DNA from: a virus
Lineage: Duplodnaviria; Heunggongvirae; Uroviricota; Caudoviricetes
IMG/VR virus record: IMGVR_UViG_2609459864_000003
Location: 1 to 9,527 of that record
DNA: 9,527 bases
Reading direction: 5' to 3' (one strand)
The position numbers were made by a program, and so were the translations under genes. Shown one piece after another: positions 1 to 9,483 of the stretch (position 1 is its first letter; the number at the start of each line of letters is the position of its first letter). The notes under the pieces were generated by a model. The model ran no database searches and was not told where the DNA came from. It was given only the letters and a program-made list of their open reading frames with translations.

Positions 1-224
1 ATGGTCCCGGCATGTGAAGGCGGAAAACCTTCAACCAGCAGGGTGACGCTGTACTGACCATGCTCAACATCCATGCTGTAACGTCCGGCTTCATCCGGAT
101 TTTCAGAGGCCACCGTGTTCACCACCACCGTGCTGCTGGTTCGTCTGGCCTTCAGCACAATGGTGCAGTTCTGTACTGGTTTTCCTGTGCCATCTTTAAG
201 CACGCCAGAAATTTTTACTGTCAT
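1..224 (-). CDS. stf: side tail fibre protein Stf, N-terminal fragment (gene continues beyond window start)
   Basis: Minus-strand ATG at 222-224 opens a frame still open at base 1. Translation MTVKISGVLKDGTGKPVQNCTIVLKARRTSSTVVVNTVASENPDEAGRYSMDVEHGQYSVTLLVEGFPPSHAGT matches my recollection of the lambda Stf (orf-401) N-terminus (MAVKISGVLKDGTGKPVQNCTIQLKA...). It sits directly downstream of lom, as in lambda. Absent from the ORF track because there is no stop inside the window. Confidence 0.7.
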   Translation of the reverse strand, partial: MTVKISGVLKDGTGKPVQNCTIVLKARRTSSTVVVNTVASENPDEAGRYSMDVEHGQYSVTLLVEGFPPSHAGT

Positions 225-238
225 ACTTTTCCACCAAT

Positions 239-270
239 AAAAAAAGCCCGCAGCAGTGACGCCACGGGCT
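239..270 (-). terminator. intrinsic terminator downstream of lom
   Basis: Inverted repeat agcccg (245-250) / cgggct (265-270) with a 14-nt loop. On the minus strand the hairpin is followed by a U7 run (plus-strand A-run 239-245). Lies between the lom stop (376) and the stf start (224). Confidence 0.5.
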
Positions 271-375
271 TCAGGACAGTGTAACTTTACGTTTCCTCAA
301 ACGCAGTTCACCCCATAAGGTGGATGAACCTGCGTATCATAACAATATTTACAGAAGATAAATCGGCGTCTGTTG

Positions 376-975
376 TCAGAAACGGTATCCGATACCAACA
401 ATAAATGCATCCGTTCGCCAGTCGCCACTACCGGAACCTTCATAAGCAAGGTCAATGGTCACGGATTCGGTCGGGTTAAACTGCACGCCAGCCCCCCATG
501 CCAGAGACGTGTTGCTGTGGCGACCGTCATCACTTCCGGTCAGCACATCGTGCGTTTTCCCCTTGTTGTCAGTTACGCGGAGATAATCCCCGGAGAAAGT
601 CGACACACGGCTGTAAGCCATACCCGCCATCGCATACGCGCTGAACCATTCATTCACGCGCACAGACGGCCCCGCCATCACGCTGAACCAGCGGTTACGC
701 ACGGAATCTTCATGCCAGCGGGTATCGCTGTAGTGCGTTTTTTGCTCATCCTCAGCATTGGCATAACTGAAGGACGTAATCAGCCCCAGCGCGTCCGTAA
801 ACTCATAACGGTATTTCACGTTAATCCCGTTCAGATTATCGCTGCCGGGAGCGTTCGTACGGGCATGAAGATACCCCGCGCTCAGTGTGGACTGATGTTC
901 AGACGCCCATGCAGGCGCACCGGATACGGCCAGACAGATGGCTGCGGACAAAATGGCTGCACAAACTTTACGCAT
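376..975 (-). CDS. lom: Lom outer-membrane protein (Ail/Lom/PagC family)
   Basis: 199-aa ORF; MRKVCAAILSAAICLAVSGAPAWASEHQSTLSAGYLHA... is near-identical over its length to lambda Lom as I recall it. Has an N-terminal signal peptide and C-terminal aromatic residue typical of beta-barrel outer-membrane proteins. SD gagagg lies upstream of the ATG at 973-975. Lies immediately downstream of J, as in lambda. Confidence 0.93.
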   Translation of the reverse strand: MRKVCAAILSAAICLAVSGAPAWASEHQSTLSAGYLHARTNAPGSDNLNGINVKYRYEFTDALGLITSFSYANAEDEQKTHYSDTRWHEDSVRNRWFSVMAGPSVRVNEWFSAYAMAGMAYSRVSTFSGDYLRVTDNKGKTHDVLTGSDDGRHSNTSLAWGAGVQFNPTESVTIDLAYEGSGSGDWRTDAFIVGIGYRF

Positions 976-996
976 AATTACCTCTCGCTTTTCTGC

Positions 997-1023
997 AATA
1001 AAAAAGGCGCCATTTCTGGCGCC
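997..1023 (-). terminator. intrinsic terminator between J and lom
   Basis: Perfect 7-bp stem ggcgcca (1006-1012) / tggcgcc (1017-1023) with a 4-nt loop that reads GAAA on the minus strand, followed on the minus strand by UUUUUUAUU (plus A-run 997-1005). Starts about 20 nt after the J stop codon. Confidence 0.65.
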
Positions 1024-1042
1024 CGTATATGGGTTATAAAAT

Positions 1043-4000
1043 TCAGCTGATACTGATGCCTGCGGTGGCTTTCTTCATCACCACAACCAGCAAATCGCTG
1101 ATACTTGCTGTGGGATACCAGTTATTCACCAGCCATGCTGACACCGAAAACTCCAGTGTCATGTGACCGTGACCGGCAGGCATATCAATAACACCACTGT
1201 AAATCAGCGTATTATCCAGCGCGGTACGGTTATAAATTTCAGCACCGTTTTTCCGCACTATCAGACGGCATGAGGAGTAAATATCAGTATGCTCTTTCTC
1301 ATGTTTAGCGCCGCTGAATGCCACCGCCGGAATAACAATCTGCCGGTCAAACGGCTGATCGTCATAAACCCTGACGGTAATGGTCCCTGATGGCCACCGC
1401 TCCGGTGCACGGGAGTCCCGGGGGAAAGCTTTGCCCACTGTTTTAACGAGATCGCCTTCAATCTGGTTGGCGGACAGTTTTCCCAGAACCCGACAGTTTT
1501 CGTTAATCGTGACGTTGTTGAGCGTCCCGGAGTTCGCATTCACGTTACCGCTGATATCGGCATTTTTCGCCGTCAGCCGCCCGTCCGGTGTCAGGGAAAA
1601 TGCCGGAGGATTACCGCCGCTGGTAATGGTGGGAGCCGTCAGGTATTTCAGGAACACTTCGTTCATGAATATCTGATCGCCCTGACCAACAAACATCGGC
1701 TTTGTGTTGCCATTCGCAGGATTAATCATCGCAATCCGGTCAGCAGCCAGAAGCACCTGACTCTGCATACCTGCTGGCGTATTCTCAATACCGGCTCCGA
1801 TACCCGCAATATAAAGGCGTCCGTCCTTCATCTGCTGCAGTTTCACGGCCCACATGCTGTTCAGGTTATTATTTGTATCAACCTGAACTTTCTGTATCTG
1901 CTGGATTGCCGCACTCTGATTTTCCAGTTTTTTATTGACGGTCTGCGTGATTTCATTGCTGACATTCGTAATGGACGTCCTGATTTCAGCCAGATCAGGC
2001 GCAAGCTGACCGTTATCAATCTGTGTCCACAACTCCTGAGCCAGATGGGTTTTCCCTATCTCTCCTTTGAAAAAATCCAGATAGCCGGATGCATCATCAC
2101 TCGGCTGGCCAACAGCCTCCACAAATGCCGATTTGCCAACAGTATTCACACTGCGGATATAAAAATAATAATCATGGCCCGGTTTGATATTGATACTGGC
2201 AGCTATCCAGTACAGCGCCGAGCCAAGATAGCGGGCTGCGGTTTCAACCTGCCTGATATCCGCAATCCGCTTTTCCGAGAACCAGAACTCAAACTGTACC
2301 GTCGGGTCATAAACGGCAAGATGCGGCGTGGCGGGTATCTGAAAATAGCCCGGCGTCAGCTCAATCCGCGACGGTGCTGCCGGTGCGGCAATCCGGAAGG
2401 TGGTGGTGGCAGGTTCACCCTGCTGGCCATAGCTGTTTATCGCCCGCACCGTCAGGGTGTATTCCCCGAGCGGCAGGCCGCTGAAACGGTGCTCCGTGTC
2501 TGCGGTGATGGCGGTGGTCACCAGTCTGGCATCCGTTCCCTTACCACTGGTCAGGCGCAGACTGAAGCGCACACCCTTCACCACCCGCGGCGTGTCCCAT
2601 TTCGCCTGCGCCAGATACTGGCCGTCAGCTGCGCTCACCTCCACCGTCAGGTGCTGCACTGCCGGTGGGATGACGCTGTTCAGGGAACCTGACTGCGGCT
2701 CAAAGCGGGCACCGTTATCCACGATGGCTTCTTTTTCCGGTACGTGCTGCACCGCCGTGATGGCAAAGGTGCCGTCCGTGTTTTCCCGGATGGAGACACA
2801 GCGGAACAGGCGACGGCGCAGTGACGGCAGGGAGAGTCCCCACACCCCGTATGTCTCCACACCATCAGGCAGGGTACTGACCTGTATCCGGTCCGGCGCG
2901 GGGTGTTCGGTGATGTCCACACTCACCGGCTTACCGCTGCCGTTAATCAGGTTCACCGTGGCGGCACCGGTCTCCGGAAGTGTCACTTCACGGTCCAGCG
3001 TCAGGGTGCGGGTGGCAGCATCAATGGACAGGACACGTCCGCCGGTCAGAGTCCCGGCATAGTCGTTATCACAGATTTCAATGATGTCACCGGGTGTGTG
3101 CCGCAGCCCCTGAGACCCGAGCGTGAAATCCACCGTCTGCGTTTCCAGCAGTTCGGTCTTTATCACCCACAGTCCGGCACGGTGGGCCTGACCGCGGCTG
3201 GTACAGCCGAACGCGTCCATCTTCAGCAGGTTGCGTCCGTAGCGCAGTATGGCTTCCGGGTCTTCCACCAGTTCCGTGGAGGTCTGCCAGCCGTTCTGCG
3301 GGTCGGTGTAATTCACCTCCACCGCCGTGTGCCGGTCCTTCAGGGCACTGAAGCTGTAGCGGAATCCCACGCCGTTATCATCCACCACCACATCGCTGTT
3401 GGTGTACGGCCACACCACATCCGACGGGCGGTCCTGAACGAACGTCAGCGTCTGACCGTTCCATACCGGCATACAGCGCATCGCAGAGCAGAAATCACTG
3501 AGAACGTCCCACGCCTTACGCTGTTGTGCCAGGTACGCATTAAAGGTCATCCGCGGCTCTGTCCCCCCGAAACCATCCGGGACCGTCTGGTCGCAGTACT
3601 GCCCGATGGCATACAGCGCCCACTTGTCCACATCCGCCGCCCCCAGACGTTTTCCCATGCCGTAGCGCGGGTGAGTCAGCATGTCCCACAGGCACCAGGC
3701 CGGGTTGTTGCTGTATGCCGGTTTCAGACTGCCGTCCCAGATACCACTGTACGTGCGTTTTTCCGGGTCATAGTTTGACGGCACCTGGATGATGCGACCG
3801 CGGATATGGTAGTTCACCGTCATCTGCTGGCCGCCGAACTGCTCCGCATCCACCTGCAGCCCCACAATGGCCGTGTTCGGGTAATCGAGGCTGAGGGCTT
3901 TCTTAATCTCGTATCCGTGTCTGCGGTAGCACTGAATTAGCCACTCGGCCTGTTCTTCAGTGCATGGGGGATGCTGGAACCAGTCAGATTTGAAAGTGCG

Positions 4001-4072
4001 GGAACGCCGCCCGTGCCTGCTGGCAGGGGCGGCAGAGTTATCCGAATTGTAAAATTTGGTATCGTGCGCCAT
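1043..4072 (-). CDS. J: tail-tip host specificity protein J, N-terminally truncated fragment
   Basis: The track ORF 1043..4201 aligns by eye with lambda J from about ORF residue 107 ([20 protein letters not shown]... versus lambda KQCYPNTALVGVQVDSEQFGSQQ...) through the C-terminus, including the conserved [13 protein letters not shown] and [30 protein letters not shown] blocks. The first ~106 residues do not resemble J. The hok terminator lies at 4141-4170, so I place the plausible start at the internal ATG 4070-4072 ([10 protein letters not shown]...). Roughly 200 N-terminal residues of a full-length J and all upstream tail genes are absent. Confidence 0.85.
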
Positions 4073-4140
4073 CTGTTTTCTCTGCTGGCGCAGCAGGTGC
4101 CAGTTGTTCAGGCTGACGGATGGATTGTAAACCAGAACGA

Positions 4141-4170
4141 CCAGAAAAAACAAAACCCGCCGAAGCGGGT
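4141..4170 (-). terminator. hok mRNA intrinsic terminator
   Basis: Stem aacccgc (4153-4159) / gcgggtt (4164-4170) with a 4-nt loop, followed on the minus strand by UUUUGUUUUUUCUGG (plus 4141-4152). Lies about 70 nt downstream of the hok stop. Confidence 0.6.
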
Positions 4171-4239
4171 TAAGTGCGGGTGCGTTGAGGATGCCTGACA
4201 CATCAGCGGTGGCGAGGGATTTCTCCCCCGCCGGGTCTC

Positions 4240-4395
4240 TTACTCCTCAGGTTCGTAAGCTGTGAAGACAGCGACCTCCGTCTGGCCGGTTCGGATTCGT
4301 ACCTCGCAGAGGTCTTTCCTCGTTACCAGTGCCGTCACTATGACGGTTAAACAGATGACGATCAGGGCGATTAACATCGCCTTTTGCTGCTTCAT
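4240..4395 (-). CDS. hok: Hok/Gef family type I toxin (51 aa; HokD/RelF-like or HokC/Gef-like)
   Basis: My own translation of the minus strand gives [51 protein letters not shown]: a single transmembrane helix plus the conserved RKDLCE and VAVF(T/M)AYE motifs of Hok/Gef proteins. SD ggaga lies upstream of the ATG at 4393-4395. Below the 60-aa cutoff of the ORF track. Confidence 0.93.
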
Positions 4396-4451
4396 AGCCT
4401 GCTTCTCCTTGACCTTTCGGTCCGTAAGAGGCTAATCTCTATGTGTCGCAT
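4392..4451 (-). CDS. mok: mok-like leader ORF (19 codons) translationally coupled to hok
   Basis: Minus-strand ATG at 4449-4451 opens [19 protein letters not shown]; its stop TGA overlaps the hok ATG (AUGA). The position matches the mok reading frame of plasmid R1 hok/sok, though it is much shorter here. Confidence 0.4.
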   Translation of the reverse strand: MRHIEISLLRTERSRRSRL

Positions 4452-4510
4452 AGATATGGCCTCAGATTAATGTTAAGCGTCTTGCAGGACGCGTAATGTT
4501 AACTGGGGCT
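4440..4510 (+). ncRNA. sok: putative Sok-like antisense RNA; ends approximate
   Basis: Plus-strand promoter-like hexamers TTGACC (4409-4414) and TAATCT (4433-4438) with an 18-bp spacer, pointing opposite to hok. The transcript would be antisense to the mok start region of the hok leader, as in known hok/sok loci. A hairpin gcgtct-tgca-ggacgc sits at 4478-4493. Exact 5' and 3' ends cannot be fixed from sequence. Confidence 0.35.
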
Positions 4511-4570
4511 TTTCTCTATCTGCCTTTTGGTGTTCATGCCTGAGACAGATAGCCTCAAGCACCCGCAGTC

Positions 4571-4599
4571 ATTCTACTTAACTAAGATTTCCCCGCAAA
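4571..4599 (-). promoter_or_regulatory. putative hok promoter
   Basis: Read on the minus strand: -35 TTTGCG (plus 4594-4599), 17-nt spacer, -10 TAGAAT (plus 4571-4576). It sits just upstream of the gcttgaggct 5' motif that aligns with the 5' end of R1 hok mRNA as I recall it. Confidence 0.4.
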
Positions 4600-4653
4600 C
4601 CGTTTTTGTCCGGCACAGTAAATATCCAACTAAACCAATGGCGTTCGCTGTAT

Positions 4654-4833
4654 TTACCGCCAGTATTCAATGCACATGACCGCCATGAACACCCCTAAAA
4701 AAAGGGCATTTATATATCCAAATATTAATATCAAAACATCAACTTTTTCCATATACCTTGCTGTGAAGATGATGGGCATACATGATACGAACAACCAGAA
4801 CGCAACAAACAAAAACTGCAATGCGTTTTTCAT
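4654..4833 (-). CDS. hypothetical small membrane protein (59 aa, two predicted hydrophobic helices)
   Basis: Internal ATG (4831-4833) of track ORF 4654..4872 is preceded by a strong SD aggagg. Product MKNALQFLFVAFWLFVSCMPIIFTARYMEKVDVLILIFGYINALFLGVFMAVMCIEYWR is dominated by two hydrophobic segments. Lies in a markedly AT-rich stretch (about 4680-4980). Confidence 0.5.
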   Translation of the reverse strand: MKNALQFLFVAFWLFVSCMPIIFTARYMEKVDVLILIFGYINALFLGVFMAVMCIEYWR

Positions 4834-5062
4834 TATTCCTCCTACAATCAATGTGCAATTACATTTAAACACACCTCAATTTGGCCGGACATATAAATAT
4901 CTAAACCAGAAAAAATCACTTACATAGCGTTACAAACTCTTTAGTCTAAATATTCATCGTAAAACATTCCCCATACTTATCAGCCCGTTCTGCGCCAGGT
5001 AGCTCATTGCCTTATCTGGGAATCTGTAATCAGGTTTCCGGATGCTGGTGGATTTTCGCGTT

Positions 5063-5320
5063 TTAGTTGTTCATAAAAGTGCACAGCTTTAACCAGTTCT
5101 TCTGATGTAACCGGGACTGGCGGGGCAGTGAATAAGGCCTGAATTTCATAGTTCGGCCTGTCGTTACAATCCTCTTTTTTCGGTACATATTTCCAGTCAC
5201 CAGACCACTACTTCCCCTGAAAGTCCGTAACGCCTTTTTTTTCACGTAGCGATATCGCCATGCCACTGTTTTTGCTTGCCCCGCCGTTTCATGCCCTTCC
5301 TGATAATTAACCTCGCTCAT
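5063..5320 (-). CDS. hypothetical ORF with Ea22-like start (MSEVNYQ...), possibly a frameshifted pseudogene
   Basis: ATG 5318-5320 overlaps the stop of the upstream 58-aa ORF (ATGA). The first codons agcgaggttaattatcag resemble the ea22-like start at 8185 (agcgaaattaattaccag). After homopolymer runs (A8 on the coding strand = plus T-run 5227-5234; A6 = plus 5171-5176) the product becomes an implausible K/R-rich string, while another frame carries a more protein-like open stretch ending at 5004. Confidence 0.3.
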   Translation of the reverse strand: MSEVNYQEGHETAGQAKTVAWRYRYVKKKALRTFRGSSGLVTGNMYRKKRIVTTGRTMKFRPYSLPRQSRLHQKNWLKLCTFMNN

Positions 5321-5493
5321 TCATCGCCCCACTCATCACAATATGCTTCGACCGGAGTTTTTCCTGCTTCATAATCATCACGCCATGCTTCAGCATCAGC
5401 AGCACTGCCACCACGTAACTCTGCATAGTCCATTAACAGTTCATGCCATGCTTCAAAACTGACGTTGTATTTAGTTGAACCAAAATCAGCCAT
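5317..5493 (-). CDS. hypothetical small acidic protein (58 aa)
   Basis: Not in the track (below 60 aa). ATG 5491-5493 overlaps the stop of the upstream ORF (ATGGCTGA). Translation MADFGSTKYNVSFEAWHELLMDYAELRGGSAADAEAWRDDYEAGKTPVEAYCDEWGDE. The stop overlaps the next start. Confidence 0.5.
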   Translation of the reverse strand: MADFGSTKYNVSFEAWHELLMDYAELRGGSAADAEAWRDDYEAGKTPVEAYCDEWGDE

Positions 5494-5668
5494 TTTGCTC
5501 TTCCTCTTCGTCTTTTATTTCGTGATATGAGTAATTGCAGTAGTTAAAGAAAATATCTTTTGCTTCGTCATGTATTTCATCAGGCGTCGCATCATCATCC
5601 ACTTCGAATTCATCCTCGAAATCTCCACCGGCTATTCCCGTTTCAATAATTATTTTAAACTTTCGCAT
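5486..5668 (-). CDS. hypothetical small highly acidic protein (60 aa)
   Basis: Track ORF; MRKFKIIIETGIAGGDFEDEFEVDDDATPDEIHDEAKDIFFNYCNYSYHEIKDEEEEQNG, about 40 percent D/E. An SD AGGAGG is present, but it is separated from the ATG by a GC hairpin (see the regulatory feature at 5676-5697). Confidence 0.55.
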   Translation of the reverse strand: MRKFKIIIETGIAGGDFEDEFEVDDDATPDEIHDEAKDIFFNYCNYSYHEIKDEEEEQNG

Positions 5669-5675
5669 TTAACTA

Positions 5676-5697
5676 CCGCCCTTTCGGGCGGCCTCCT
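5676..5697 (-). promoter_or_regulatory. SD-hairpin-AUG translation initiation structure
   Basis: Minus strand reads AGGAGG (plus 5692-5697), then hairpin ccgccc-GAAA-gggcgg (plus 5676-5691), then uaguuaa, then AUG (plus 5666-5668). Linear SD-to-AUG distance is 23 nt; folding the GNRA hairpin would bring them into normal spacing. Confidence 0.4.
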
Positions 5698-5761
5698 GAT
5701 GTTCTGATGGTGCAGAAATCCCTCCGGTTAAGGATTAAATTTTTAACAGAGCTAAATTTAA

Positions 5762-6118
5762 TTATTCAGTTCTGGATTTTGTCGCCCTGCGTATCCGCGC
5801 TTTCGCGTTACGCTCAATCTGAATTAGCTTTTCTATATTTTTTCGCCTTTCCCGCTCCTCCTGGCGCAAGTGCCTTACATCATCTGCCAGTCTGGTTTCT
5901 CTTTTCGCCACAGAGAGCATCCAGTCAAATGGTTCCACAACTGCACCGCAGATTTTACAGCGGACCTGACGCTCTTTTTCGTCAACCCGGACAGAGGCGT
6001 GATGACAATATGGTCTTTCCGATGGCTCATAAAGAAAATTAACCTGATTACGAGGGTCATCCTCTTTTACCGGAAATAAAACGATATTGCTTAACTCATC
6101 CTCTGGTTTTATTTCCAT
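5762..6118 (-). CDS. hypothetical protein with putative zinc-ribbon (C-HH ... C-x2-C) and basic coiled-coil C-terminus (118 aa)
   Basis: Internal ATG 6116-6118 of track ORF 5762..6175 has SD aaggagagg; the track start at 6175 is a GTG inside the upstream scar. Product MEIKPEDELSNIVLFPVKEDD...PYCHHASVRVDEKERQVRCKICGAVV... followed by an R/K/E-rich tail. Confidence 0.6.
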   Translation of the reverse strand: MEIKPEDELSNIVLFPVKEDDPRNQVNFLYEPSERPYCHHASVRVDEKERQVRCKICGAVVEPFDWMLSVAKRETRLADDVRHLRQEERERRKNIEKLIQIERNAKARIRRATKSRTE

Positions 6119-6239
6119 GCTCCTCTCCTTTGATGCGAATGCCAGCGGTAATTGAAGCCTGATAGCTAATTTCACTCACAGTACCGCCTCCTGAAAATTT
6201 AATGAACAATTCAATACGTTCTTTGGTAATAGTGGTCAT
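6096..6239 (-). pseudogene. deletion scar: chimeric 47-codon ORF built from gene-start and gene-end fragments
   Basis: ATG 6237-6239 with SD aaggag. Product MTTITKERIELFIKFSGGG-TVSEISYQASITAGIRIKGE-EHGNKTRG. Its first codons match the start of the 135-aa gene at 6922 (MITITKG...). An internal aggaggcggtact-GTG-agtgaaattagctatcag copies the RBS and start of the ea22-like gene at 8185, fused directly to a copy of the ea22-like 3' end (AGIRIKGE). Confidence 0.4.
6123..6148. repeat. 26-bp gene-boundary repeat, copy 1 (ctctcctttgatgcgaatgccagcgg)
   Basis: Exact 26-nt identity with 7438-7463. Here it lies inside the scar, read in a different frame relative to the next start codon because of a 1-nt indel just outside the repeat. 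Confidence 0.8.
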
Positions 6240-6249
6240 GTGTTACTCC

Positions 6250-6513
6250 TTAACCCGCAGTGCTTTCAACTGATGAGGGGAACAAAATCTTTTCATCAAA
6301 CCCTGCATTCATATCATGAACAGCAACACACCAATCCATCGACGAACGATTATCAAGAGCCTCCATGATTTCATCCATGCGGCGCAGGTCATACAGGTAA
6401 ATGCTTTTATCGCCAATGGTGTAAAAACCAATTTTTTTCGGTGATGGGCAGCGATCAAGAACGTCCTGTAATTCGTTCAACCATGCCCGTTCTTTTTTTG
6501 TTAAAGTTGCCAT
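6250..6513 (-). CDS. hypothetical protein (87 aa)
   Basis: Internal ATG 6511-6513 of track ORF 6250..6573, preceded by SD aaggagag within the conserved junction gccatatcactctccttt (6509-6526). Product MATLTKKERAWLNELQDVLDRCPSPKKIGFYTIGDKSIYLYDLRRMDEIMEALDNRSSMDWCVAVHDMNAGFDEKILFPSSVESTAG. Confidence 0.6.
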   Translation of the reverse strand: MATLTKKERAWLNELQDVLDRCPSPKKIGFYTIGDKSIYLYDLRRMDEIMEALDNRSSMDWCVAVHDMNAGFDEKILFPSSVESTAG

Positions 6514-6514
6514 A

Positions 6515-6922
6515 TCACTCTCCTTTCCCATGAAGCATAGCGGCGCGGCAGGCGTTCCATATTTCGGCAGCAATATCGCGCTCGCTATCGGTTAATTTGT
6601 ACGTGGAAACATAGCCAGAGAGCATTTCTACGTTTTCCGGAGTTGCTTCTTCCGGCACTATCGGCGCTGGAGGGGCGGCAAATAGATATCCGCCAAAGTC
6701 AGGAAGCTCTCCAATGGCCTGTACGAACTTTTGTTTGCCTACGTCAACTCCTAATGGGTAATGAGCTATAATCTTTGCCACCGGCTCTGCTTCCAGCGAT
6801 ACCAGTGCAATTCGTGCCAGTTCTTCCGCTTCTTCTGCTGGCAGTACAACGTTGCTACCCGGTCCGTATGTTTCGCGCCACTGCTTGATTGTCAGCAGTC
6901 GCCCTTTGGTAATAGTGATCAT
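6515..6922 (-). CDS. hypothetical protein (135 aa)
   Basis: Track ORF; the start ATG overlaps the stop of the upstream nuclease gene (ATGA at 6919-6922); SD aaggaa. No motif I can recognise. Confidence 0.7.
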   Translation of the reverse strand: MITITKGRLLTIKQWRETYGPGSNVVLPAEEAEELARIALVSLEAEPVAKIIAHYPLGVDVGKQKFVQAIGELPDFGGYLFAAPPAPIVPEEATPENVEMLSGYVSTYKLTDSERDIAAEIWNACRAAMLHGKGE

Positions 6923-7434
6923 GCCGCGTTTCCTTCTTTCTTATTAACAATCACACCGTCATATATTTCATTAAGGTGCCCTCTCAACTCCATGCGCCTT
7001 AATGCAGATAACATGTAATCGCATTCAACCTGCTTATTCCCAGTAAATGGCTTATCGTCAGGATTACCCCAACAGCAATTACCCCTGGGCCATCCATGTA
7101 CTTTCCGTACTCTTCCGTTAACAACGTGAAGTAATCCCCAGCCGGGAGGTAAATCCTCAACTGAAATAATTTCCGGCTCACTAATAAAGAATCGCCAGTC
7201 GCCCATGCCAAGTGAGGGATTTTTACGGAAACGCTTTTTTCTATCTGCCAACAAGTCAGCACGAGAACACTTCGCCTCTATCAGGCATGATGCTGAATTT
7301 CTGAATCCCATAGCATCTGGCTGTTCTCCGGTACTGGTTACAGCAACAAAGCGGTCATGAAAGCAAACCTTGAACCCGTTGCGCTTAAGGAACTTGTACG
7401 CAATCTGACAGAGTTCGCGGTGTGTTAACGCCAT
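6919..7434 (-). CDS. putative PD-(D/E)XK-type nuclease (171 aa; VRR-NUC / MmcB-like motif arrangement)
   Basis: Track ORF with SD aaggagag. The product contains ...VAVTSTGEQPDAMGF(x9)CLIEAKCSRADL...: an acidic residue, a PD dipeptide and an E-x-K triad at the spacing typical of restriction-endonuclease-fold nucleases. Family assignment is from motif only. Confidence 0.7.
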   Translation of the reverse strand: MALTHRELCQIAYKFLKRNGFKVCFHDRFVAVTSTGEQPDAMGFRNSASCLIEAKCSRADLLADRKKRFRKNPSLGMGDWRFFISEPEIISVEDLPPGWGLLHVVNGRVRKVHGWPRGNCCWGNPDDKPFTGNKQVECDYMLSALRRMELRGHLNEIYDGVIVNKKEGNAA

Positions 7435-7435
7435 A

Positions 7436-8185
7436 TCACTCTCCTTTGATGCGAATGCCAGCGGCGCGGATTGCAGCGATGACTTCAGAAACTTTGTATG
7501 CCATTACCGTTTGGTAATCATCGTGAAAATCTGTTCGATGAAGCATGCTGCTACGTTCCGGGAGCGATATTTCCCGAGCATCCAGTTCCTTAACGCGTTC
7601 CTCCAGTTCGTAGACCCTGCATTGTTCTCTATCATCAATCAGATATAACCCAAGACATTCGCTTTCTACCCAACCGCCAAAATCATGATCGTAACGCTCA
7701 CATGAAAACTCACCGTCACCGTCCTTTGTTGGAATGGTGTAACTATCTAATGGGCCACCATATGTCGGCACATTCCCCAATGTTGGATGCTCAATCCACA
7801 TGAAAAATGCACGTCCGGTTATTGGGCAAATATCTGGCCGCCATTGGTTACGAACAGCCTTGGTTTCGGATAATTCTTCAGCGTGTTGTTTTACTTCCTC
7901 AAGCTCAACTCTCAGCTTCCCTACCGTTAGCGCAATATCCTCGTTCTCCTGGTCGCGGCGTTTGATGTATTGCTGGTTCCTTTCCCGTTCATCCAGTAGT
8001 GCCAGCACGGTTTCTGGTCCGGTCAGAAATTTGAAGGCATTGAGCGCATCAATATCCACACCGTAATCTTTAAGTTCCTGTTCACTTAACAAATCATCAT
8101 CAGTTGGCAACATTAACAGGCGTTCCATTGCTGGAATTGCACGTTCTGCTGCCTCACGCAGTGCCTGGTAATTAATTTCGCTCAC
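7436..8185 (-). CDS. Ead/Ea22-like family protein (249 aa)
   Basis: GTG start 8183-8185 preceded by a strong SD aaaggagg; the track's longer ORF to 8368 has no better start. N-terminus VSEINYQALREAAERAIPAMERLL...ETVLALLDERERNQQYI... matches the pattern I recall for Ead/Ea22-like prophage proteins. Central coiled-coil, cysteine-rich C-terminal half. Confidence 0.7.
   Translation of the reverse strand: MSEINYQALREAAERAIPAMERLLMLPTDDDLLSEQELKDYGVDIDALNAFKFLTGPETVLALLDERERNQQYIKRRDQENEDIALTVGKLRVELEEVKQHAEELSETKAVRNQWRPDICPITGRAFFMWIEHPTLGNVPTYGGPLDSYTIPTKDGDGEFSCERYDHDFGGWVESECLGLYLIDDREQCRVYELEERVKELDAREISLPERSSMLHRTDFHDDYQTVMAYKVSEVIAAIRAAGIRIKGE
7438..7463. repeat. 26-bp gene-boundary repeat, copy 2
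   Basis: Identical to 6123-6148. Here it encodes the C-terminus AGIRIKGE of the ea22-like protein plus the SD of the downstream nuclease gene. The overlapping 18-mer gccatatcactctccttt (7430-7447) recurs at 6509-6526. Confidence 0.8.
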
Positions 8186-8352
8186 TGGTTGCCTCCTTTG
8201 CGAAGCTCTGCGGCTAAATACTCCAACGCCATTATGTGGCGTGTTCCCCAACCAGGACGGTACGTTCACCGCGATGACGTATACCAAAAGCAAAACGTTT
8301 AAAACCGAAAATGGTGCCCGTCGCTGGCTGGAAAGAAACTCAGGTGAGTGAT

Positions 8353-9067: not shown

Positions 9068-9120
9068 TTTCTGGTGACGTTTGGCGGTATCAGTTTTACT
9101 CCGTGACTGCTCTGCCGCCC
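9068..9120 (+). ncRNA. dicF: DicF small regulatory RNA (53 nt; ftsZ-targeting sRNA of Qin-type prophages)
   Basis: tttctggtgacgtttggcggtatcagttttactccgtgactgctctgccgccc matches the DicF sequence as I remember it, followed by a T5 run (9121-9125). It is embedded in an ORF-free, hairpin-rich region between ydfC and dicB, exactly as in K-12. Confidence 0.8.
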
Positions 9121-9294: not shown

Positions 9295-9483
9295 ATGGAA
9301 ACGTTATTACCAAACGTTAATACGTCTGAAGGTTGTTTTGATATTGGTGTTCTGCTCAGTAACCGGGAGTTTACGGAAGATGCCATTAAGATGAGAAAAT
9401 ATGAACCTTATCTTCTCAATGATAATTCCATACTTTCCAGAATTGCCCTTCTTGAACTTGGTATTATCGGAGAACAGCAGTGA
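9295..9483 (+). CDS. dicB: DicB-like cell division inhibitor (62 aa)
   Basis: Internal ATG 9295-9297 of track ORF 9190..9483, SD gagga. Product METLLPNVNTSEGCFDIGVLLSNREFTEDAIKMRKYEPYLLNDNSILSRIALLELGIIGEQQ. The 62-aa length and N-terminus match my recollection of K-12 DicB; the C-terminal half appears divergent. Lies downstream of DicF. Confidence 0.8.
   Translation: METLLPNVNTSEGCFDIGVLLSNREFTEDAIKMRKYEPYLLNDNSILSRIALLELGIIGEQQ

Follow-up and report, generated by a model that had tools for sequence, protein, structure and literature searches.

A lambdoid prophage remnant joining a nin-region reading frame to codon 212 of J, and further remnants with the same J endpoint

The longest open reading frame of a prophage remnant in Escherichia coli (positions 1043 to 4201, minus strand; 1052 aa from a GTG start) encodes a large part of the tail tip protein J, and its apparent 5′ end runs through the transcription terminator of a hok gene. 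Where does J begin in this frame, to what has it been joined, and by what kind of event? A first-pass annotation of the DNA had proposed that the tail module was cut inside J and joined to a hok/sok cassette. The window, by which we mean the whole stretch analysed, is a complete 9.5-kb contig (9,527 nt) of the 2014 draft assembly of E. coli 3-020-07_S4_C3, and is a heavily decayed lambdoid (Qin/ompW-phage-like) prophage remnant. We read it, with a probability of about 0.9, as a remnant in which one deletion of about 26.7 kb has joined codon 63 of a 92-codon ORF to codon 212 of J through a TA dinucleotide. The features on which this reading draws are as follows.

376–975, minus strand: lom (Ail/Lom outer-membrane protein; Pfam Ail_Lom, 419.8 bits), kept downstream of the J fragment
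1043–3883, minus strand: J′, tail tip protein J from codon 212 to codon 1157, with 99.7% identity to E2348/69 gpJ between nt 634 and the stop codon
1043–4072, minus strand: in-frame chimera of 1009 aa, in which 63 aa are followed by J residues 212–1157, deposited as KDZ43765.1, ‘phage tail family protein’
3882–3883, no strand: deletion junction, a TA dinucleotide common to both parents (three-way alignment; BLAST halves overlapping by exactly 2 bases)
3884–4072, minus strand: codons 1–63 of a conserved 92-codon ORF of the nin region, with full identity to the 5′ portion of WP_001341382.1 (O104:H4 and Ecol_316 prophages)
4073–4201, minus strand: 43-codon 5′ extension of the longest ORF; non-coding, made up of hok 3′ UTR and intergenic DNA, and intergenic in intact relatives
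4144–4171, minus strand: hok intrinsic terminator (stem 4171–4154, 7 bp and GC-rich with a 4-nt loop; T-run to 4144), which forms in the MFE fold
4178–4190, minus strand: fbi (fold-back inhibition) element, CCUCAACGCACCC, pairing with hok mRNA nt 1–12 (tac, 4564–4553)
4240–4395, minus strand: hok toxin gene, 51 aa (Pfam HOK_GEF, PF01848, 82.9 bits against a cut-off of 22)
4393–4564, minus strand: hok mRNA leader and sok antisense region (Rfam RF01794, sok: 106.7 bits, gathering score 59; full model, 1–157)
8233–8234, no strand: second deletion junction, a shared TA (alignment with both Ecol_316 parents; BLAST coordinates)

The hok/sok module and the frame that follows it

In RefSeq relatives, loci with 100% identity to the hok DNA of the window carry the annotation HokD (WP_000813254.1). 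Pairing of tac with fbi appears in both the MFE and the centroid folds of the mRNA (−169.3 kcal/mol, z = −7.63). A mok-like leader ORF of 19 codons (4451–4392) ends in a TGA that overlaps the hok ATG (ATGA); a longer open frame that overlaps hok lacks an ATG, GTG or TTG start. The locus resembles the hok/sok systems of plasmid R1 and of K-12 hokD (relF) in its 51-aa Hok/Gef toxin, in a sok antisense region and leader matching RF01794, in the long-range tac–fbi pairing that closes the full-length mRNA and in a terminator placed directly after fbi. It differs from K-12 hokD, which lies 71 nt behind relE with no room for a leader of about 170 nt, in having the full leader, and from the R1 system in its location, the nin region of a prophage rather than a plasmid. 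The mok gene of R1 has about 70 codons and overlaps hok; the frame overlapping the hok start in the window is shorter, at 19 codons, and stops on the ATG of hok.

The first 43 codons of the 1052-aa frame do cross the hok terminator (4171–4144) and fbi (4190–4178), as had been proposed, and the coordinates originally given for the two elements were within 1–3 nt of those recomputed here. The GTG ‘start’ at 4201 is a mechanical extension of the ORF through both. An ATG at 4070 had also been proposed as a start for J; the codon is real, its position is corrected to 4072–4070, and it is the own start of the 92-codon nin-region ORF. This ORF normally lies 168 nt downstream of hok, and the stretch from hokD to it is collinear with the window in 739 complete genomes. 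It matches PHROG 1212 (E = 8e-16), its 90% cluster has 335 members, and Pfam assigns it to no family; K-12 Rem, whose gene occupies the same position, gave no alignment with it. The roughly 100 codons upstream of J had been described as unrelated to it: the 106 codons from 4201 to 3884 indeed lack similarity to J, and 63 of them are real coding sequence. The cut J has been joined to codon 63 of a distinct, conserved 92-aa ORF and not, as had been suggested, to a hok/sok cassette; hok/sok is intact in its native nin-region position, and nothing has been joined to it.

A deletion junction in a shared TA dinucleotide

By BLAST, positions 1–3883 of the window are 99.7% identical to the J-lom-stf segment of an E2348/69 prophage and positions 3882–8207 are 99.9% identical to the hokD/nin/ead region of an O104:H4 prophage. 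The BLASTN comparison with intact prophages that the first-pass annotation had proposed splits at 3882/3883 with TA as the overlap, and a three-way alignment of both parents with the product places the crossover in the shared TA at 3883–3882. This TA corresponds to lambda nt 16138–16139, with which J codon 212 opens. On the left the parent is WP_001341382.1 (92 aa), whose first 63 residues are identical to those of the fusion, and on the right it is a 1157-aa gpJ. In a phmmer search against the PDB, residue 63 of the fusion aligns with residue 211 of lambda gpJ, and J starts at Tyr212 (YPNTA). The earlier placement of the onset of J similarity near 3885, at the same residues, was therefore accurate to within a few bases (3883/3882), and so was the statement that the tail module is cut inside J, which has lost residues 1–211.

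Since the window is a complete contig of a 2014 short-read draft and contains repeated prophage DNA, the junction might be an assembly chimera. This we regard as extremely improbable: the DNA across the junction is nucleotide-identical in two other assemblies (GCA_039058325.1 and GCA_016666015.1, one of which is a third-party re-assembly), the sibling colony S4_C2 encodes the same fusion, and a 2-bp overlap is unlike a k-mer graph mis-join. The junction is real. An intact phage whose J naturally begins MAHDTKF..., with hok upstream, would have offered a different origin for this arrangement; neither such a phage nor the junction-spanning sequence was found in any of 50,697 phage records or 5,426 complete E. 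coli genomes. The exact 36-nt junction string also had no match among the GTDB species representatives, a set with one genome per species and for this question of little weight. The crossover lies in a shared TA of 2 bp, and the join is the product of illegitimate recombination, neither homologous nor att-mediated.

A full-length E2348/69 prophage at ompW agrees with the window in gene order and orientation, with hokD, the 92-aa ORF, DUF968, RusA, Q ... J, lom and stf; L, K and I precede J in intact relatives, where the window has the nin-region ORF and hok. The interval between the two breakpoints measures about 26.8 kb in this prophage and about 26.7 kb in that of O104:H4. The loss was mapped on these two related full-length prophages, with a single 9.5-kb contig on the side of the window, and on this comparison the missing interval comprises the 3′ part of the 92-codon ORF, DUF968, RusA, the antiterminator Q, the lysis genes, cos, all head genes and the tail genes as far as J residue 211. 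J is matched best in E2348/69 and the early side in O104:H4 and Ecol_316, so that the matches do not single out one parent prophage.

These differing matches (99.7% for J to E2348/69; 99.9% for the early side to O104:H4/Ecol_316) would also fit recombination between two resident lambdoid prophages, with loss or rearrangement of the chromosome between them, as would the identity of just 94% between the early side and the hokD region of the E2348/69 prophage itself, and the number of hokD region copies per E. coli genome (median 2, up to 20). Lambdoid prophages are mosaic, however, so that best matches differing from module to module are expected; both parts have the order and orientation found in a single prophage; and HSP425 carries a clean deletion of the same kind inside one prophage, between attL and attR at ompW. 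An exchange between two prophages is thus unlikely, and we favour a deletion within a single one.

A second deletion has removed the immunity and replication region, including the pR-equivalent promoter. Its junction (8233/8234), also with a TA overlap, joins the ead/Ea22 region to about codon 13 of ydfA, with the loss of about 4.0 kb carrying the repressor, a cro-like gene, ydaT, a replication gene, DUF977 and a methyltransferase. The contig lacks the immunity/replication, Q, lysis, head and tail modules of an intact inducible lambdoid prophage; the modules that the prophages of Ecol_316, O104:H4 and E2348/69 carry between the ydfA′/ead join (8233/8234) and the nin ORF/J′ join (3882/3883) are gone from it. 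Like the cryptic prophages of K-12 (Qin, Rac and DLP12), the remnant was made by several internal deletions. It shares with Qin the early gene set dicB, DicF, ydfC, ydfB, ydfA and hokD, and with Rac (ynaA-lomR-stfR) the loss of late genes with retention of a J fragment, lom and stf. The breakpoints, however, differ; Qin keeps Q, lysis genes and nohA; Rac has a J fragment of only about 1 kb; and the window, unlike the K-12 elements, additionally lacks the repressor and replication region and has a junction that fuses two ORFs in frame. A deletion that fuses an early gene to J is ordinary prophage decay, and the part worth following is the recurrence of the breakpoint in J.

Recurrence of the J endpoint

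At least 12 other independent remnants have a deletion that ends on the same TA of J, with nine further left partners and three right partners. Three remnants with an identical J endpoint have as left partners the 92-codon ORF (the window), DUF968 and a methyltransferase, the latter two junctions each occurring in one of the 5,426 genomes; on the left, Rz, Nu1, A, portal, FI, J nt ~308 and a sequence of unassigned origin also occur as partners. In three remnants it is instead the sequence to the left of this TA that survives, joined to tfa, to J nt 2715 or to stf. A protein search with J residues 212–488 returned almost only partial J fragments of less than 490 aa and no new partners, and the fusion proteins of HSP425 and 02B21 had no exact-sequence match in the protein collection. 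A full-text search of the literature found no description of a deletion hotspot in the J gene.

Several of the additional cases came from a pattern that starts at this TA and could find only junctions there, and the 14-mer after it belongs to the few stretches of J that are perfectly conserved. Repeated use of the site might accordingly be a matter of coincidence or ascertainment, the deletion in the window being a random illegitimate event. Searches independent of the site nevertheless point to the same TA: three of the four J-internal endpoints in remnants found by whole-window BLAST, and two of the four breaks within J nt 2–1041 in a sample anchored at J nt 1042, fall on the TA base. Moreover, among 116 J genes sampled with an anchor 27 nt to the right of TA, the only lesions in the 63 nt upstream of the anchor were two TA junctions and a 10-nt deletion across TA, and the lowest-ranked match of an unrelated BLAST likewise ends on TA. 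Other junctions in the same remnants use ordinary microhomologies of 3–10 nt at other sequences. Coincidence is on these grounds quite unlikely, and because the same TA was used in many independent remnants we infer that the J-side endpoint is not random.

No enzyme, hairpin, IS or repeat that would account for the endpoint was found. A transposon end was rejected, as no locus has an inverted copy of the site, and so was an IS or other element inserted at TA, of which IMG/VR held none. There is no notable inverted repeat from which a hairpin or cruciform could form at TA (ssDNA fold z = −1.4), and the site bears no resemblance to the core of the ompW attL/attR, which speaks against a secondary att site. 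Nor was there any likeness to sites of Din-family invertases, Ter, Chi, EcoKI, EcoBI, EcoP15I, integron cores or IS3 ends, judged by eye, so that these are weak exclusions.

The most likely explanation is a site-specific break or nick at the J TA, which would expose ends that are joined, or that prime template switching, through the terminal TA. The TA of J codon 212 lies inside a 29-nt block (J nt 619–647) that is conserved even at synonymous positions, and we tentatively propose that lambdoid prophages could be fragile, or be cleaved, site-specifically at this TA: J might be cut by a nuclease or by an enzyme of the topoisomerase or recombinase type that leaves TA as a 2-nt overhang, or break at a replication barrier, and joining of the protected ends to any TA in the vicinity would follow. 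Deletion hotspots with a fixed endpoint are known from replication arrest at TerB and from gyrase-mediated illegitimate recombination. The J site resembles these in having one endpoint fixed to the nucleotide and a second that varies, in the few bases of microhomology and in giving only deletions. It differs in that no Ter-like or strong gyrase-site motif was recognised there, in that deletions extend to either side of the one TA, and in that the two kinds of end overlap by 2 nt, where gyrase would give 4. If such a site exists, it would produce nucleotide-precise, one-sided deletions and a stereotyped inactivation of prophages. If the cut in J is non-random, part of prophage inactivation in E. 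coli would follow a defined molecular route, which could be identified, used as a marker for defective prophages and might serve to disarm Stx-type phages.

The chimeric J frame

Pfam detects Phage-tail_3, Ig_J, Ig_J_second, Phage_Tail_Tip and Ig_GpJ_C in J′ but not FNIII-A_GpJ; that domain (PF24801) occupies residues 86–207 of the 1157-aa J of E2348/69 and is missing from the window protein, whereas PF13550, PF24421, PF24489, PF09327 and PF12421, covering the hub, FNIII-1/2, fibre and receptor-binding domains, score above cut-off. The fragment aligns with residues 211–1131 of gpJ in PDB 8iyk, and in comparison with lambda gpJ (PDB 8IYK and 8XCG; PMC10721106; PMC11101478) the whole stretch from residue 212 to the end can be aligned, taking in HDII, HDIII, HDIV, FNIII-1, FNIII-2, the helical shaft, the central fibre and the receptor-binding domain; residues 1–211 are replaced by 63 unrelated ones. 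In lambda, residues 72–215, which form the N-terminal strands of the HDII-insertion domain and FNIII-A, contact gpI (PMC10721106). The first-pass annotation had concluded that a J fragment of this kind would lack the domain anchoring it to the tail tip. This holds for the HDII-insertion N-terminal strands and FNIII-A, which are lost, but not for hub domains HDII, HDIII and HDIV, which are retained; anchoring is in any case a moot point on an element that has kept no other tail gene.

The in-frame join is a one-in-three chance event, and the chimera appears to be a pseudogene-like relic, because its partners gpI, gpL, gpK, gpM and gpH are not encoded on the contig, because the pR-equivalent promoter was removed by the second deletion at 8233/8234 and because the sole upstream transcription signal then meets the hok terminator. 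A simple promoter scan found no sigma-70-like site in 3800–4750, but as it also missed the hok and sok promoters the result carries little weight. Alternatively, the 1009-aa product might have been domesticated and be expressed, for example as a free receptor-binding J fragment that occupies the receptor and so keeps out superinfecting phage, or its translation might spare lom and stf from Rho-dependent polarity. Consistent with a function, every receptor-binding and fibre domain is kept, and the 1009-codon frame is open in two diverged copies that differ at 10 codons, 7 synonymously and 3 non-synonymously. Four of these 10 codons, however, are among the last six of the frame, and because the differences cluster like a recombination patch the ratio has no statistical power. 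Selection for in-frame fusion was considered as well: four of the eight readable fusions at J codon 212 are in frame (those to the 92-codon ORF, the methyltransferase, DUF968 and FI), which is not significantly above the one-third expected by chance, and the fusions to Nu1 and to A are out of frame. With the hok terminator 70 nt upstream and the pR-equivalent region deleted, domestication is very unlikely, and we retain the interpretation of the chimera as a relic. For annotation, the ‘1052-aa J’ is a 63-aa early-gene stub followed by a truncated J, and its apparent 5′ end is the hok 3′ UTR. The frame in one public annotation of a sibling isolate, KDZ35906.1, starts inside the T-run of the terminator.

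An in-frame junction between a nin-region ORF and J

The window corresponds to the entire contig JNRT01000062.1 of assembly GCA_000704825.1 (Escherichia coli 3-020-07_S4_C3), and its genes are laid out as follows.

Minus strand, from high to low coordinates: ead/Ea22-type early region, intact hok/sok, a long ORF, lom, start of the side tail fibre gene
4201 to 1043, minus strand: the longest ORF (1052 aa, GTG start)
Plus strand, high-coordinate end: ydfA', ydfB, ydfC, DicF, dicB

When the whole window was searched by megablast against 5,426 complete E. coli genomes, positions 1-3883 matched the J-lom-stf region of an E2348/69 prophage (99.7% identity) and positions 3882-8207 the hokD/nin/ead region of an O104:H4 prophage (99.9% identity), and no record carried both sides of 3882/3883 together in one place. 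Alignment of the window with both parents placed the switch inside a TA common to the two (window 3883-3882): the nin-side parent reads ...CTCGATTA|TCGTCAC, the J parent ...CAGTGCTA|CCCGAAC and the window ...CTCGATTA|CCCGAAC. In a comparison to solved structures, residue 63 of the ATG-started protein aligned with residue 211 of lambda gpJ, so that the J portion starts at Tyr212 ('YPNTA'). The crossover codon encodes Tyr in either parent (TAT in one, TAC in the other), which keeps the fusion in frame. The junction is thus a deletion with a 2-bp overlap that created a chimeric ORF of 1009 aa, formed by 63 residues followed by J residues 212-1157. The first-pass annotation had noticed that J is cut internally and that similarity begins at 'YPNTA', and both the megablast split and the structural alignment agree with this; its observation was correct and its reading partly so, and the event that it described is ordinary prophage decay.

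This junction is genuine and has been inherited, and public databases already contain the exact chimeric protein. Its 90% cluster has four members, all with the same residues across the junction, from four assemblies: the source isolate, the sibling colony S4_C2, GCA_039058325.1 and GCA_016666015.1. The sequences fetched from the latter two are identical to the window in the DNA across the junction. The GCA_039058325.1 copy differs from the window at 11 nt in the ORF; seven codons change synonymously and three non-synonymously, and with four of these among the last six codons, the differences are too few and too clustered for a test of selection. Intact phages whose J begins like the chimera and has hok immediately upstream were not found: among 50,697 phage records no entry crosses the junction, and matches end there from either side.

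In two comparison prophages, a full-length E2348/69 prophage at ompW and a near-intact O104:H4 prophage (portal gene annotated as frameshifted), hokD, the 92-aa ORF, DUF968, RusA, Q ... J, lom and stf lie in this order on one strand, and the interval between the breakpoints measures about 26.8 and 26.7 kb, respectively. What is missing from the window comprises the 3' part of the 92-codon ORF, DUF968, RusA and Q; then tRNAs, holin, lysozyme and Rz; the terminase, portal and capsid genes; and the tail genes through I with the first 633 nt of J. In the lambda tail tip, gpI contacts HDII, the HDII-insertion domain and FNIII-A via beta-sheet augmentation (PMC10721106). The proposal that the J fragment would lack the domain anchoring it to the tail tip holds for FNIII-A_GpJ, found by Pfam at residues 86-207 of the full-length 1157-aa J and absent from the window protein, but not for the hub domains HDII, HDIII and HDIV, which lie after residue 215 and are kept. 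Pfam also detects Phage-tail_3, Ig_J, Ig_J_second, Phage_Tail_Tip and Ig_GpJ_C in the window protein. The chimera is probably non-functional.

The 92-codon ORF and hok/sok

The sequence between ATG 4072 and the junction (63 codons) is the 5' end of a conserved 92-codon ORF, WP_001341382.1 (...LSLDY|RHWII... around the crossover), a member of PHROG 1212 (function unknown) in which no Pfam match was found. The K-12 Rem protein, encoded by the same-position gene, was considered as a homologue and is unrelated. In intact relatives the ORF begins 168 nt past the hok stop, with DUF968, RusA and antiterminator Q after it, and in 739 complete genomes the stretch from hokD to this ORF runs collinear with the window. 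Therefore, hok/sok is in its native place, and the partner of J is the 92-codon ORF, not a hok/sok cassette to which the tail module had been thought to be joined. Likewise, the view of the upstream codons as hok 3' UTR applies to the 43 codons from GTG 4201 to 4073, non-coding DNA into which the ORF extends only mechanically, but not to the 63 codons that follow. The hok/sok elements themselves are intact. Both elements recognized by the first-pass annotation are real: the terminator consists of a 7-bp stem (4171-4154) and a T-run after it, and the fold-back inhibition element (fbi), CCUCAACGCACCC (4190-4178), base-pairs with nt 1-12 of the hok mRNA in both the minimum-energy and the centroid fold (z = -7.63).

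In the public record KDZ43765.1 the protein starts at ATG 4072; in that of the sibling colony (P0003, KDZ35906.1) translation is annotated from a TTG within the terminator's T-run (corresponding to window ~4153). Only one ORF with a start codon overlaps the start of hok, a leader of 19 codons (4392-4451, minus strand), whose TGA overlaps the hok ATG (ATGA); a longer, mok-like frame over hok is open, with no ATG, GTG or TTG start. Whereas the hokD of K-12 Qin (L009, 5120-5634) lies 71 nt behind relE, with no room for a sok/tac leader of ~170 nt, the window hokD has a complete leader (4396-4564), and the window locus appears to be an unabridged version of what RefSeq calls hokD. Between hok/sok and the DUF7167 gene (4654-5320, minus strand), the window sequence is broken up into several short ORFs; in the near-identical loci of O104:H4 and Ecol_316, annotation gives this stretch as a pseudogene with a frameshift and an internal stop.

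A recurrent deletion endpoint at J codon 212

In whole-window BLAST searches, J homology in two other remnants, HSP425 and 02B21CPO003B, started at J nt 634, the same base as in the window, with different left partners; each junction occurs in one of the 5,426 complete genomes. HSP425 is a simple internal deletion, as its remnant sits between attL and attR at ompW. Pattern scans of IMG/VR and metagenomes returned further left partners on the same TA, and also the opposite class, in which the left side of TA is retained and downstream sequence is attached.

Partners joined at the TA of J codon 212
Left, DNA methyltransferase codon 56: HSP425
Left, DUF968 stop codon: 02B21CPO003B
Left, Rz: L267
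Left, Nu1 (lambda nt 699): L018, L127, L263 and L273 (four samples)
Left, terminase A: L120
Left, portal: L103
Left, FI: L020
Left, J nt ~308: L271 (low-coverage contig)
Left, unidentified sequence: L062
Right, tfa: L259
Right, J nt 2715: L261
Right, stf: L268 (MRE162)
Coordinates of this endpoint in L004 and L011: ~4976 and 5383

Including the window, at least 13 independent remnants have a deletion endpoint at this TA, where ten different left and three different right partners are joined. Of the seven partners with a readable parent sequence, six had TA in the parent at the crossover; for the seventh (L271) the lambda reference, which may not be the true parent allele, has CA. In the right-kept class, homology runs only rightward of TA (TA, TA, TAC, TAC, TACC, TACC), and all events with a left partner that could be mapped to a reference prophage are same-orientation deletions, with no inversions seen. 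Other junctions within the same remnants show ordinary microhomologies of 3-10 nt, at other sequences.

Two samples served as controls for ascertainment. The first used a 20-mer at J nt 1042 as anchor: of ~105 informative loci, ~100 had an intact J, and the four breaks within nt 2-1041 fell at nt 634 (two), 844 and 937. The second covered 116 J genes with the anchor 27 nt rightward of TA, and there the only lesions in the 63 nt upstream of the anchor were the two nt 634 junctions and a deletion of 10 nt in L183 (IMGVR_UViG_2630968933_000007). The J endpoint thus recurs, and we infer that it reflects a site-specific lesion. The TA lies in a 29-nt block, GATGTGAAACAGTG[C/T]TACCCGAACACGGC (J nt 619-647, window 3898-3870), whose conservation extends to synonymous positions in alleles that are elsewhere only ~75-80% identical; the exact 14-mer TACCCGAACACGGC was present in 110 of the 116 sampled J genes. 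The ends retained in the left-kept and right-kept classes overlap by exactly TA, a geometry compatible with staggered cleavage that leaves a 2-nt overhang, or with a pair of nicks, the termini being preserved and serving as terminal microhomology. The L183 deletion (J nt ~629-638) takes out the TA in an otherwise continuous J (GATGTGAAAC|GAACACGGC); it is consistent with break and repair at the site, which fits better than conservative recombination. Searches of the site found no transposon-like inverted copy, IS, hairpin or likeness to an att core. The stereotyped breakpoint is the element of possible wider interest.

L268 (E. coli MRE162, at the DLP12 site near appY-ompT) is a patchwork in which short pieces of Nu1, portal, capsid, FI, J (nt ~165-635), stf and tfa follow one another head to tail, serial internal deletion taken to an extreme. 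Three further loci, with other breakpoints, keep the early region and hokD beside J/lom/stf with most or all late genes deleted: strain H2 (L003), the fourth remnant next to the window, HSP425 and 02B21CPO003B, broken at J nt 1774; LZHX12 (L014), broken upstream of J beside an IS66 TnpB fragment; and Z1323HEC0422 (L015), with IS3 at the junction. Their retention of hokD is biased, all having been found by similarity to the hokD-containing window.

A second deletion at 8233/8234

At 8233/8234 (context 8150-8351) the ead/Ea22 region is fused to codon ~13 of ydfA via a common TA, again a 2-bp overlap (parents CGCCATTA|CCGGG and CTCTGGTA|TGTGGCG). Relative to Ecol_316, ~4.0 kb are absent: two further ead-like genes, a methyltransferase, DUF977, a replication gene, ydaT, a cro-like gene and an ORF at the repressor position; the promoter regions flanking the immunity region on both sides are gone. 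Late genes and immunity region are thus lost within this contig, and the two deletions together leave a remnant without immunity region, replication genes or late genes. A called 47-aa 'DUF1391' gene begins in ead-side DNA. Beyond the junction, the DicF sRNA (9069-9120, plus strand; Rfam 76.7 bits) and dicB (9295-9483, plus strand) are intact. The second deletion has nevertheless deprived the division-inhibitor operon of its repressor, by removing the ORF at the dicA position, and of its native promoter, by removing the promoter region that precedes ydfA.
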